From the IMG/VR virus record IMGVR_UViG_2693429584_000015: a stretch of 4,474 bases of DNA; one strand, written 5' to 3'. Below, piece after piece: positions 2,509-4,474 of this stretch. The stretch is from a virus. Its lineage: Duplodnaviria; Heunggongvirae; Uroviricota; Caudoviricetes. The first letter of the stretch is position 1. The number at the start of each line of letters is the position of its first letter. Under the pieces are notes generated by a model. The model did not search any database. It was not told the origin of the DNA and saw only the letters and a list, made by a program, of their open reading frames with translations. The translations under genes and the position numbers were made by a program.

Positions 2509-2883
2509 ATGAAAAACAGTGTCCAGTTTATTACTGATAATGCCGGTGTTAGAACCGGGGTCATTATGTCAGTTGCTGAATATGAACGGCTGTTAAGTCT
2601 GGCAGATCCTGATGATGATTTTGAAAGCATCCAGTATGAAGCCGGAGAGCATGACAATGAAACAATACCTCATGAAGTAGTATCCATCATGATTGATGAT
2701 GATGTGTCATTGTTGGCAGCATGGCGGATTTACAGGCGAATGACTCAACAGGAAGTGGCGGAGCGCCTGGGGGTTAAACAGTCAGCCGTATCTCAGTTTG
2801 AGAGAGCAGGAGCTCCGCGAAAATCAACACTGGAAAAACTGGCTGAGATTTACAACTGCCGACCAAATCAGTTGGCTGATTAA
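2509..2883 (+). CDS. Type II antitoxin, two-domain: N-terminal antitoxin-like segment plus C-terminal HTH (XRE-family)
   Basis: 124-aa ORF; ATG 2509 with an upstream aaagg. C-terminal MTQQEVAERLGVKQSAVSQFERAG...STLEKLAEIY is a canonical XRE/Cro-type helix-turn-helix; the N-terminal part (VQFITDNAGVRTGVIMSVAEYERLL) resembles antitoxin N-domains. Acidic linker in between. Toxin-first order as in HigBA-type modules. Confidence 0.75.
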   Translation: MKNSVQFITDNAGVRTGVIMSVAEYERLLSLADPDDDFESIQYEAGEHDNETIPHEVVSIMIDDDVSLLAAWRIYRRMTQQEVAERLGVKQSAVSQFERAGAPRKSTLEKLAEIYNCRPNQLAD

Positions 2884-3028
2884 TCCTGAGTTTGGTTTTC
2901 GTAGCGATTGCATTTTTCTTATCTGCTTGCCGTTGTAGGTAGCGTGTATTTGCATGTTGTTTTGTAGTTAACCTTATGATTGGCTGAATTTTGTTCATCA
3001 ATAAAAAATATCCCTCTCTGATCTTTAA

Positions 3029-3054
3029 GGTTCGCTTTGGCGGACCTTTTTTTT
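3029..3054 (+). terminator. Rho-independent terminator (end of the TA transcript, candidate)
   Basis: Stem ggttcgc (3029-3035) / gcggacc (3040-3046) with one G-U wobble, loop tttg, then an 8-T run (3047-3054). Confidence 0.6.
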
Positions 3055-3190
3055 ATTTCCGCGCCACGCCCGGCGTACATCAAAAACCACAGAGCCTTTC
3101 AGGGGTGAGCTTACGGGATGGTCAGTGTGACTTTCTCTGTGGGCTGGTCACCCCCGGGCGCAGGCTCACCCACTAAAAGGAAAAGTCACG

Positions 3191-3622
3191 ATGTTTGGTA
3201 TTTTCAAAAAGAAAACCCGCAGAGCAGCAACTGAAATTAAAAAGTTTGAGAAACGCGATCTGGCACAGGCGGTTATTAATGCTGCCTACCTGGTGGCCTA
3301 TGCAGATGGTGAATGTGAGACTTCAGAGAAAGCGAAGATCGAACAGGTATTACGTAACCAGCCAGCATTGTCCGCATTTACGTCAGAAATTAATGCCATC
3401 AGTGCCACGATCACAGGTCAGCTTGACACCAATTTTAAAATTGGTCGTCGTGCAGCGTTGCGTGAAATTGAAGATGTGAAACACGATACGCGTGAAGCGG
3501 AAGATGTGCTGGATGTGGCGGTGGCCATTGCTGAAGCAGATGGTGAAATTGAGCCGGAAGAGCGTAAGGTTCTGGAAGAGATTGCTGGTGTTCTTGGCCT
3601 GCGACTGGAGAACCACCTGTGA
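3191..3622 (+). CDS. TerB-like (tellurite-resistance TerB domain family) protein
   Basis: 143-aa ORF; ATG 3191 with SD AGGA 9 nt upstream. Two helical repeats each carrying the 'A.ADG' signature (AAYLVAYADGECETSEKAKIEQVL and VAVAIAEADGEIEPEERKVLEEIAGVLGL) typical of TerB-domain proteins. Assigned by motif pattern, not by search. Confidence 0.7.
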   Translation: MFGIFKKKTRRAATEIKKFEKRDLAQAVINAAYLVAYADGECETSEKAKIEQVLRNQPALSAFTSEINAISATITGQLDTNFKIGRRAALREIEDVKHDTREAEDVLDVAVAIAEADGEIEPEERKVLEEIAGVLGLRLENHL

Positions 3623-3786
3623 CGGTAAAACTGCGTCTGGCCGCTGTGGCACTCCTGCTGTTTCTGGTGGTGATGGTGGATTTCACCAGCAGGATCATGT
3701 CGGTGCTGGCGGATGGAGTGCTGGTGGTCGGTATTGTGGTATTGCTGTGGCCGGTGATAAAAAGAAACAGCCTGCATAATGCTTGA
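3619..3786 (+). CDS. Small hydrophobic protein (55 aa, two predicted TM helices), translationally coupled to the TerB-like gene
   Basis: Absent from the supplied ORF track (under its size cut-off); found by manual translation. GTG 3619 overlaps the TerB TGA stop (3620-3622) in a GTGA arrangement, with GGAG (3607-3610) 8 nt upstream. Translation VTVKLRLAAVALLLFLVVMVDFTSRIMSVLADGVLVVGIVVLLWPVIKRNSLHNA has two hydrophobic segments and a basic C-terminus. CTG/GTG-rich codon use matches neighbouring genes. An internal ATG 3673 start would remove the first helix. Confidence 0.45.
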   Translation: MTVKLRLAAVALLLFLVVMVDFTSRIMSVLADGVLVVGIVVLLWPVIKRNSLHNA

Positions 3787-3951
3787 TTTTTTTGTTTACT
3801 GTTTATTAAAAATACTACTGCATGGTGAATCCCCCTGTGCGGAGGGGCAATCAGCAACCAGGTATATGTGATAATCGCGGATTCAGGTGCTGATACTGAA
3901 TTCACCGGGAGGCACCCGGCACCATGCAAGAAAAAGAATGTGCATGCAAAC

Positions 3952-3978
3952 ATGCCCCTCTCCGGAGGGGCATTTTTT
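3952..3978 (+). terminator. Rho-independent terminator (strong)
   Basis: Perfect 7-bp GC-rich stem gcccctc (3954-3960) / gaggggc (3965-3971), extendable by 2 bp, loop tccg, then a 6-T run (3973-3978). Confidence 0.65.
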
Positions 3979-3983
3979 ATGGG

Positions 3984-4010
3984 TAAAAAATGCCCGAATG
4001 GGTTCGGGCA
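3984..4010 (-). terminator. Rho-independent terminator on the minus strand (convergent with the 3952-3978 terminator)
   Basis: Perfect 8-bp stem tgcccgaa (3991-3998) / ttcgggca (4003-4010), 4-nt loop. The A6 run at 3985-3990 becomes a U-tract only for a minus-strand transcript. No minus-strand gene to the right is visible in the window. Confidence 0.45.
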
Positions 4011-4071
4011 ATAGCATGAGATACTGATATTGTTGTGTTGTTATCGTGTGGATTTTAACCAGGGTTTATCA

Positions 4072-4097
4072 GGCTGCGCAACTGCGTGGCCTTTTTT
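4072..4097 (+). terminator. Terminator-like hairpin plus T-run (weak)
   Basis: Stem ggctgcg (4072-4078) / cgtggcc (4085-4091) with two G-U wobbles, 6-nt loop, then a 6-T run (4092-4097). Confidence 0.35.
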
Positions 4098-4105
4098 CAT
4101 TTCTT

Positions 4106-4150
4106 GGGCTGTAGTCCCCGTGTGTCATTCAGGCTTCCGGACTACAGCCC
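4106..4150. repeat. 12-bp perfect inverted repeat with a 21-nt spacer
   Basis: gggctgtagtcc (4106-4117) and its exact reverse complement ggactacagccc (4139-4150), about 45 bp upstream of the esterase start codon. Confidence 0.6.
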
Positions 4151-4193
4151 ACTCCATATCTGATTTAATACACTATCCCGGCCGGGAGGAATA

Positions 4194-4474
4194 ATGACAT
4201 TTAAACATTATGATGTTGTCAGGGCGGCGTCGCCGTCAGACCTTGCGGAAAAGCTGACACACAAACTGAAAGAGGGCTGGCAGCCGTTTGGTAGTCCGGT
4301 GGCCATAACCCCTTATACCCTGATGCAGGCGATTACAGCAGAAGGTGATGTGGTGGTCAGTGGTGCAACTGAGCCGGAGTGGTACTACGTCATCGTACTG
4401 GCCGGGCAGTCCAATGCCATGGCTTACGGTGAAGGGCTTCCGCTGCCGGATTCATACGATGCTCCGGATCCGCG
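4194..4474 (+). CDS. Prophage esterase, nanS-p-like (sialate O-acetylesterase / SGNH-type); 3'-partial, continues beyond the window
   Basis: ATG 4194 with a strong SD GGGAGG (4184-4189). The N-terminal ~50 aa (MTFKHYDVVRAASPSDLAEKLTHKLKEGWQPFGSP...) resemble the small DUF1737-type domain recalled at the N-terminus of prophage NanS-p esterases, followed by the esterase motif YVIVLAGQSNAMAYGEG. No stop before the window end. Confidence 0.7.
   Translation, partial: MTFKHYDVVRAASPSDLAEKLTHKLKEGWQPFGSPVAITPYTLMQAITAEGDVVVSGATEPEWYYVIVLAGQSNAMAYGEGLPLPDSYDAPDP

Follow-up and report, generated by a model that had tools for sequence, protein, structure and literature searches.

The window analysed here is a 4,474-nucleotide (nt) stretch of DNA from a tailed phage of the Caudoviricetes (IMG/VR record IMGVR_UViG_2693429584_000015), and the question it raises concerns about 400 bp near its 3' end. 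Between a DUF3927 open reading frame (ORF) and an esterase gene (3787-4193) lies a region without an obvious gene that carries terminator-like hairpins on both strands. What does a phage keep in such a place? The original prediction, made from the sequence, proposed a structured small RNA (sRNA) or a regulatory hub. We are highly confident that the region is an sRNA dyad, consisting of STnc100/EcOnc06 on the plus strand and AgvB on the minus strand, in a lambdoid prophage of Escherichia coli O157:H7 that resembles Shiga toxin (Stx) phages.

The locus is already described: it is the published AgvB/EcOnc06 (STnc100) dyad. Others have established on the identical sequence that both RNAs exist and bind Hfq, and that AgvB sponges GcvB. 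Our additions are incremental and concern the modularity of the linker, an extra helix a-a', the conservation and covariation of two further hairpins (3 and 4), and the likeness of hairpin 3 to the terminator of the PasD sRNAs. Two named RNAs turn a seemingly empty 400 bp into annotated regulators associated with virulence and fitness. Most genome records, among them the RefSeq and phage records examined, annotate neither RNA, and some show spurious ORFs over them. Why dyads exist is a question called open by Sy & Tree, and the modular linker, the additional covarying helix and the conserved hairpins 3 and 4 offer handles on it.

The two small RNAs and their shared end

Prophage Sp17 of E. coli O157:H7 strain Sakai matches positions 3780-4200 (421 bp) at 100% identity, and Sp10 of the same strain differs from them by 1-2%. 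Hundreds of O157:H7 genomes contain the segment at 100% identity, with at most 11 related places per genome. The two RNAs and the signals of the minus-strand partner are located as follows; fold z-scores here and below were computed against dinucleotide shuffles.

3820-3979, plus strand: STnc100-family sRNA (EcOnc06 of Sp17), predicted length 160 nt; Rfam span 3794-3984
4046-3985, minus strand: AgvB (EcOnc01b/agvB2), a GcvB sponge of 62 nt, RF02702
4010-4003/3998-3991, minus strand: AgvB terminator stem of 8 bp, with a U-run at 3990-3985
4052-4081, minus strand: AgvB promoter as read from the sequence, with -10 TAAAAT (4057-4052), -35 TTGCGC (4081-4076) and an 18-nt spacer

When the whole window was scanned against Rfam at permissive settings, the plus strand matched the full STnc100 model (RF02076, positions 1-206) with 144.7 bits against a gathering threshold of 47 (E 3.6e-33). 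The segment 3820-3979 folds with -65.9 kcal/mol (z -4.0). The reverse complement of the EcOnc06 Northern probe corresponds to window positions 3862-3896 with one mismatch, and is exact in Sp10; the coordinates published for EcOnc06 refer to an older Sakai assembly that is offset from NC_002695.2, and the probe sequence was used instead. EcOnc06 of Sp17 is crosslinked to Hfq, appearing as a peak in crosslinking and analysis of cDNA (Hfq-CRAC), runs at ~177 nt on a Northern blot, and has a homologue in Sp10 listed as "5' ECs1961" (Table S2, Tree et al. 2014, PMC4104026). The probes for EcOnc27 (Sp5, 3' of stx2B, ~235/247 nt) and EcOnc05 (Sp4) map to homologous STnc100 copies. EcOnc06 would act as an Hfq-dependent, base-pairing sRNA.

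The minus strand matches AgvB (RF02702) with 96.5 bits against a threshold of 56 (E 1.3e-18) and is identical to the consensus at 62/62 positions. We assign this identity because of the Rfam match and the identity with Sp17; the literal AgvB sequence was not found in the supplements of Tree et al. We place the 5' end at 4046 as in the Rfam model, which in turn reflects a primary 5' end mapped by RNA ligase-mediated rapid amplification of cDNA ends (RLM-RACE). The whole 62-nt RNA folds with a z of -3.75 and carries the GcvB-target consensus CACAACA at 4037-4031. Its -35 element sits within hairpin 3. In other prophages, class-1 anti-sRNAs (AgvB, AsxR and variants) are likewise preceded by a conserved plus-strand block, ATTTTAACCAG.

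AgvB is known from Sp10 and Sp17 as EcOnc01a/b or AgvB1/2, a 60-nt, Hfq-dependent primary transcript whose 5' end pairs with the R1 seed of GcvB and relieves dppA repression; deleting both agvB copies makes the strain less competitive in bovine terminal rectal mucus (Tree et al. 2014, PMC4104026). Members of the anti-sRNA family are 51-60 nt long and combine a conserved 3' part of ~42 nt, which includes a Rho-independent terminator, with a variable 5' part of 14-18 nt. The single-stranded 5' end of AgvB (…AACAACACAAC…) mimics GcvB target sites. It blocks GcvB and so de-represses dppA and other amino-acid and peptide transporters, as demonstrated by others for this exact sequence. AgvB rewires the amino-acid-uptake regulon of GcvB and aids the growth of O157:H7 in bovine rectal mucus.

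The layout of the pair is that of the family: AgvB is a minus-strand partner that converges on STnc100, 3' of PR', and is antisense to EcOnc06, one of the described dyads (Sy & Tree 2021). The plus and minus transcript ends lie ~5 nt apart. Positions 3968-3979 and 3984-3995 form a perfect 12-bp inverted repeat, separated by 4 nt, so that STnc100 and AgvB share their final 12 nt (GGGCAUUUUUUA). Each terminator's U-tract doubles as the A-tract of its partner. The two sRNAs bind Hfq and would be transcribed independently, converging on back-to-back intrinsic terminators.

How common this arrangement is was assessed from an exact-match scan of IMG/VR with the core 3903-3928, which returned at least 120 loci. 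The matches listed from IMG/VR, together with other loci, gave 77 distinct regions of 425 nt, in which conservation of the 26-nt core is fixed by the search pattern itself. Among the matches listed, 43/77 distinct STnc100 loci have a convergent minus-strand terminator 14-21 nt from the plus-strand stem. The terminator is of the AgvB/AsxR type in 18 of these, of a second type in 22, and of other types in three. The second type, GCCCGCG…CGCGGGC, is that of EcOnc08/21/42 (~271 nt) and of an sRNA found in enteropathogenic E. coli (EPEC) by RNA interaction by ligation and sequencing (RIL-seq).

Much of the original prediction fits these assignments. Its three terminator-like hairpins are where it had placed them, and each folds better than its shuffles (z -2.9 to -4.4); the window holds 9 terminator-like sites against 4.5 +/- 1.8 in shuffles. 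Its structured plus-strand sRNA of ~130-160 nt, ending at the 3952-3978 terminator, is STnc100/EcOnc06 with a predicted length of 160 nt. The proposed hub with convergent terminators is also borne out, the second terminator being that of the anti-sRNA AgvB. This minus-strand terminator had been described as lacking a gene in the window, which was mistaken, as the gene is the 62-nt AgvB at 4046-3985. The idea of an sRNA or hub was sound; what it overlooked was the minus-strand RNA inside the window and the prior publication of the locus.

No tRNA, protein family or further Rfam family accounts for the region. Weak Rfam matches to GcvB (plus strand, 20 bits) and OmrA-B were rejected as due to complementarity with AgvB and to a generic terminator.

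Domains, linker and putative promoter of the plus-strand RNA

The STnc100 family is built of three parts: a conserved 5' domain of ~108 nt, a hypervariable linker of ~24 nt and a terminator. The corresponding elements of the window are listed below.

3783-3812, plus strand: putative sigma-70 promoter, with -35 TTGATT (3783-3788), an 18-nt spacer and -10 TAAAAA (3807-3812)
3820-3927, plus strand: structured 5' domain, compared in 55 distinct homologues
3820-3827/3920-3927, plus strand: helix P1, nearly invariant and always paired
3832-3836/3843-3847, plus strand: helix P2, nearly invariant and always paired
3905-3909/3915-3919, plus strand: helix P5, nearly invariant and always paired
3850-3856/3888-3894, plus strand: helix a-a', with a just 3' of P2 and a' in the 9-nt loop of b-b'
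3879-3886/3896-3903, plus strand: hairpin b-b', covarying
3928-3951, plus strand: single-stranded linker AAGAAAAAGAAUGUGCAUGCAAAC, unpaired in the centroid fold of 3820-3979
3952-3960/3965-3973, plus strand: intrinsic terminator stem of 9 bp with 6 GC pairs, and a U-run at 3974-3979; z -2.9

Across the family, positions 3820-3928 are ~90-100% conserved (77 distinct regions, among the matches listed). Conservation or covariation backs P1, b-b' and a-a'; P2 and P5 are invariant and therefore uninformative. In b-b', one pair is GC in 26 domains against AT in 24, and another is AT in 37, GC in nine and TA in three (55 domains). Helix a-a' is absent from the Rfam consensus structure. It is swapped wholesale between variants, as ATCAGC/GCTGAT, CTGGTG/CACCRG, AATGAC/GTCATT, ACTGAT/ATCAGT, CCAGTC/GRCTGG or CTGGC/GCCAG. 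Column counts of a-a' on a MAFFT alignment were dropped because indels shift the register, and a register-free duplex test was used instead. With RNAduplex, cognate arms pair with -9.2 kcal/mol against -4.6 kcal/mol for non-cognate arms (17 loop classes), and 0/20,000 permutations reach the observed mean. Stems that are conserved and covary in related prophages are thus found, the point on which the original prediction had laid itself open to refutation.

The order a…b…a'…b' would correspond to a pseudoknot of the kissing-loop type, or to two alternative conformers. The 5' domain, a tightly folded multi-helix junction, would serve as a stabilising scaffold.

The linker is A-rich and holds four consecutive ARN triplets. 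This motif is associated with the distal face of Hfq (Tree et al. 2014, PMC4104026), and the triplets are likely to form a distal-face site. Among the matches listed, the ~24 nt of the linker (3929-3951) occur as 30 distinct tails of at least 10 unrelated linker types in the 77 distinct loci, and the type of the window is a minority one (~14/117 copies). The terminator stem that follows, CCCCTCTCCGGAGGGG (CCCCUCUCCGGAGGGG), is kept in most members of the STnc100 family. A comparison is offered by PasD1 and PasD2 of EPEC E2348/69, Hfq-dependent RNAs of 172-173 nt with the RIL-seq seed UGUGAG beside their terminator (Pearl Mizrahi et al. 2021; Zhu, Shabalina & Storz 2026 preprint). The location of the PasD seed is equivalent to the linker of the window. 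From this position and the pattern of variability, we presume that the linker is the seed of EcOnc06.

In some prophage contigs, two to four STnc100-like 5' domains follow one another in tandem, and their centres and linkers all differ (L024, ~9188-10083, reverse; L003, 1222-1879; L061, 1392-1790; L107, 2015-2600; and L026). STnc100 modules appear, from these sequences, to duplicate and diversify in place.

The PasD loci also guide the placement of the 5' end. A TTGACT-N18-TAAAAA-N7-G block precedes both PasD1 and PasD2, and in an alignment the window and PasD are nearly identical through TTGAyT-N18-TAAAAA-N7-GCAUGGUGAAUCC. The published 5' end of PasD2 from RNA-seq (NC_011601:741157) is the G of GCAUGGUG, which aligns to G3820 of the window. 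We infer that the plus-strand RNA starts at G3820, which gives 160 nt. Both this promoter and that of AgvB were assigned by homology and direct reading of the sequence.

The putative promoter at 3783-3812 shares positions with the DUF3927 stop codon, and its upstream context differs from that of most STnc100 family members, where a conserved block with a perfect TTGACA or TTGACT lies upstream. This widespread block reads TCACAATTCAG-N4-TTGACn-…-TTTGTTAAAA; in the window, the 3' end of the DUF3927 ORF stands there instead. The window shares its ORF-proximal block with Sp10, Sp17 and the PasD loci, and only from ~3801, ~20 nt before P1, are the two contexts homologous. The presence of two upstream contexts on one 5' domain suggests that promoters have been swapped by recombination.

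Hairpins before the esterase gene and competing explanations

Two further hairpins lie between the AgvB gene and the start of the esterase gene.

4071-4079/4084-4092, plus strand: hairpin 3, an intrinsic terminator (GGCTGCGCAACTGCGTGGCC + T6) with a 9-bp stem and a T-run at 4093-4098
4105-4117/4139-4151, plus strand: hairpin 4, a perfect 13-bp stem with a 21-nt loop, in the esterase 5' leader
4184-4189 and 4194-4196, plus strand: Shine-Dalgarno sequence GGGAGG and start codon of the NanS-p-type esterase, the downstream border of the region

Hairpin 3 folds with -14.9 kcal/mol (z -4.4). Hairpin 4, with -28 kcal/mol (z -5.8), is the most stable element of the region. Both are present in 34 distinct esterase-upstream regions; a search of species-representative genomes with the N-terminus of the esterase returned 13 loci, mostly from Escherichia, and added little diversity. 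In 21 representatives, 86.8% of the cells are paired. Changes on both sides are seen at eight pairs, one in hairpin 3 and seven in hairpin 4. Shuffles give 2.2 +/- 1.0 such pairs (0/500), and controls with slid partners give 0-1. All 21 representatives keep one U.G pair of hairpin 3, and hairpin 4 contains many G.U pairs. Since G.U pairs would be C.A mismatches on the minus strand, hairpins 3 and 4 are structures of plus-strand RNA. Neither strand of hairpin 4 is followed by a U-run, and positions 4047-4200 gave no Rfam match with E < 0.01 at permissive filters, cis-regulatory families included.

Hairpin 3 (GGCUGCGCAACUGCGUGGCC-U6) is nearly the same as the terminator of PasD1/PasD2 (GGCUGCGCA-UU/UG-GCGC(A/G)GCC-U8). 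The published 3' end of PasD2 lies in the U-run of that terminator, which speaks for termination at hairpin 3 as well. Placed ahead of the esterase and lysis genes, hairpin 3 probably acts as a back-up terminator or an insulator. In a lysogen, it would stop read-through from the sRNA promoter and keep the lysis cassette silent; in lytic growth, Q-modified polymerase would ignore it. For hairpin 4, mRNA stabilisation, processing and translational control are candidate roles. Its loop and 3' arm (4123-4140) are 72% complementary to the Shine-Dalgarno and start region of the esterase (4182-4199). We do not claim a pairing between hairpin 4 and the ribosome-binding site, as the association of TGTCAT/ATGACA versus TGCCAT/ATGGCA across prophages is weak (3:1 vs 7:15).

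Several points weigh against parts of this interpretation. Expression for the window is taken from the literature on the identical sequence, and a generic sigma-70 scan of the window gave no promoter for either RNA. The predicted 160 nt fall short of the ~177-nt Northern band; an upstream start (for example from the -10-like CATAAT at 3775-3780) or release from the upstream mRNA by processing is possible. Helices a-a' and b-b' may coexist as a pseudoknot or alternate. The linker as seed rests on PasD and the pattern of variability, and the roles of hairpins 3 and 4 are read from the sequence only.

Could the hairpins simply separate transcription units? Three terminators stand within 150 bp before the lysis genes and no separate RNA has been assigned to hairpin 3, as might be expected of insulating or bidirectional terminators between the morons and the lysis operon, with the short RNAs as functionless by-products. 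For AgvB this is contradicted by a demonstrated target and a fitness phenotype. The 5' domain of STnc100 keeps ~110 nt of covarying structure, far beyond the need of a terminator, and both RNAs crosslink to Hfq. We consider the by-product explanation very improbable. We give almost no credit to the idea that the region encodes small proteins, be it ECs_3499, ECs_1960 (antisense to the sRNA), BP-4795 ORF42 or the ORFs of 44-54 amino acids. Such ORFs do exist, and some records annotate hypothetical proteins there. None of them belongs to a Pfam family, however, and the RefSeq record of the identical sequence, annotated by the Prokaryotic Genome Annotation Pipeline (PGAP), has no coding sequence between the DUF3927 gene and the esterase. 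Substitutions in homologues preserve the RNA helices rather than the reading frames, and indels are frequent in the centre. The original view that no credible ORF is present agrees with this, as the five ORFs of 44-54 amino acids and a 172-amino-acid antisense ORF have no Pfam match.

The origin of the plus-strand RNA allows another explanation, in which it is a 3' untranslated region (UTR) fragment of the TerB-like/DUF3927 moron mRNA or of the PR' late transcript, released by processing, for instance through RNase E cleavage within the AU-rich UUUAUUAAAAAU. This would suit the replacement of the widespread upstream block by the end of the DUF3927 ORF with homology only from ~3801, a candidate promoter (TTGATT/TAAAAA) that is weak and missed by the scan, and a Northern band longer than the RNA starting at G3820. 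Against this, the ORF-proximal block of the PasD loci is shared with the window and has a better -35 (TTGACT), PasD itself is discrete, abundant and begins at the homologous G, and other members of the family have a perfect upstream TTGACA or TTGACT. A 3'-UTR origin is unlikely in our view, and we retain transcription from the putative promoter at 3783-3812. As for the structure of this RNA, a-a' and b-b' could be mutually exclusive conformers of an RNA switch instead of a static pseudoknot, and the choice between them would set the exposure of part of the RNA. Both helices covary, with only 1-3 nt between a' and b or b'. The minimum free energy fold extends a-a' at the expense of part of b, but b-b' is the helix of the Rfam consensus, and in variants D6, D19 and D27 the helices are nested, not interleaved. 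Against a switch, a 9-10-nt hairpin loop can sterically form 6-7 bp with another strand, as in kissing loops. We regard a switch as less likely than not.

A wider reading joins three features and treats the dyad as a recombining, modular RNA platform. A pseudoknotted or switching 5' scaffold, defined by a-a', may carry at least 10 exchanged, unrelated seed cassettes, a possible counterpart to the 5' ends that vary among the convergent anti-sRNAs. Hairpin 3 may be the ancestral, PasD-type terminator, and an STnc100 read-through of ~280 nt ending there would be fully antisense to AgvB and contain a GcvB-R1-like stretch. Hairpin 4 may be an undescribed cis-element that controls the nanS-p esterase mRNA. 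If this is true, the phage could titrate its own sponge, or silence AgvB when Q-antiterminated late transcription crosses the locus. The three features taken jointly remain speculative, and we would be somewhat surprised if all of them held.

Genomic setting and comparison with known systems

The whole window is collinear with prophage PPyecE_EH1910. Its genes run in the order Q antiterminator, methylase, toxin-antitoxin pair, TerB-like protein, DUF3927 ORF, sRNA region, yjhS/nanS-type esterase, holin and endolysin, the last two as read from the collinear phage record.

32-430, plus strand: Q-like antiterminator gene

The esterase carries the Pfam domain DUF1737 on residues 3-50 and is annotated in LC567835 as yjhS / 9-O-acetyl-N-acetylneuraminic acid deacetylase. 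The dyad would sit in a moron slot, with PR' and the Q gene on one side and the esterase and lysis genes on the other. At least eight Sakai prophages carry a dyad in the interval from the late promoter to the lysis genes (Sy & Tree 2021).

Directly 3' of the Q-like gene, a structured plus-strand stretch of ~120 nt (431-552) ends in a 16-bp hairpin and U7. It folds with -49.1 kcal/mol (z -4.6), has no Rfam match, and occupies the position where PR'/tR' and a short leader RNA of the StxS type sit in Stx phages. In the moron region, 2187-2448 and 2509-2883 (plus strand) form a toxin-first, toxin-antitoxin-like pair adjoining an N6/N4 DNA methylase (1020-2081); LC567835 labels the pair 'plasmid stabilization protein' and then a helix-turn-helix 'transcriptional regulator'. 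A GC-rich leader with long-range pairing (3052-3192, plus strand) lies between a terminator at 3027-3048 and the TerB-like gene; its fold of -51.5 kcal/mol is weakly better than shuffles (z -2.2).

Older records place hypothetical proteins over, or antisense to, the sRNA and the TerB/DUF3927 genes: 3435-3953 (minus strand), ECs_1960, ECs_3499 and BP-4795 ORF42 (L016, 1546-1773). These ORFs are probably spurious, being without a Pfam match and absent from the PGAP annotation. A tRNA or tRNA-like gene was rejected, with ARAGORN and Rfam negative in the window. In related prophages ileZ-argN-argO occupy this slot, and in Sp10 and other loci tRNAs lie upstream.

Among known systems, AgvB of Sp10 and Sp17 shares with the minus-strand RNA its sequence, the convergent position opposite an STnc100-type RNA, the CACAACA motif, the 3' ~42 nt and the terminator. 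No difference from the known gene is detectable (agvB2-type allele). The upstream morons of the window (methylase and toxin-antitoxin pair), in contrast, match PPyecE_EH1910 and not Sp17. AsxR (RF02703) and EcOnc27, found 3' of stx2AB, have the same dyad layout, and the 3' module of the anti-sRNA is homologous, with a sub-threshold match of 43 bits at the same place. The variable 5' region of AsxR targets FnrS and that of AgvB targets GcvB; the moron upstream of AsxR is stx2AB, whereas here it is TerB-like/DUF3927.

On the plus strand, STnc100, EcOnc06, EcOnc27 (sRNA103) and EcOnc05 are alike in their 5' domain, terminator, full-length model match and Hfq-crosslinked homologues, and the family is alike in its location 3' of a moron and 5' of an esterase gene. 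The linker of EcOnc27/sRNA103, GUAUACAGAGAUUAGGCAUAUACC…, differs from the presumed seed of the window, so the published effects of sRNA103 on fimZ and espA are not transferable. The central insert of the window is shorter than that of the Stx2-phage copy, which accounts for the lower score (144.7 vs 207.7 bits). Single-nucleotide polymorphisms in EcOnc27, the Stx2-phage homologue of STnc100, are among the top genomic predictors of haemolytic uraemic syndrome (PMC12711010).

PasD is similar in size and occupies the same slot, PasD2 sitting between a DUF3927 ORF and an SASA esterase gene; its promoter-proximal block and first ~50 nt are nearly identical to those of the window. It differs by the absence of P5, another centre, the seed UGUGAG, and the absence of a convergent anti-sRNA and of hairpin 4. 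The window sRNA is not a PasD: its linker contains no UGUGAG, P5 is intact and its own terminator is different, the PasD-type terminator occurring separately as hairpin 3. It has been proposed that PasD and STnc100 share an origin and differ in their seeds (Zhu, Shabalina & Storz, bioRxiv 2026). The score of PasD on the STnc100 model, 38-41 bits and below the gathering threshold, agrees with this proposal.

A moron, as cited by Tree et al. from Juhala et al. 2000, is a unit with its own promoter and terminator inserted in the late operon. The dyad resembles lambdoid morons in consisting of autonomous transcription units 3' of PR'/Q, which end at intrinsic terminators through which Q-modified polymerase can read. 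It differs from them in its cargo, which is two non-coding RNAs and not a protein gene.

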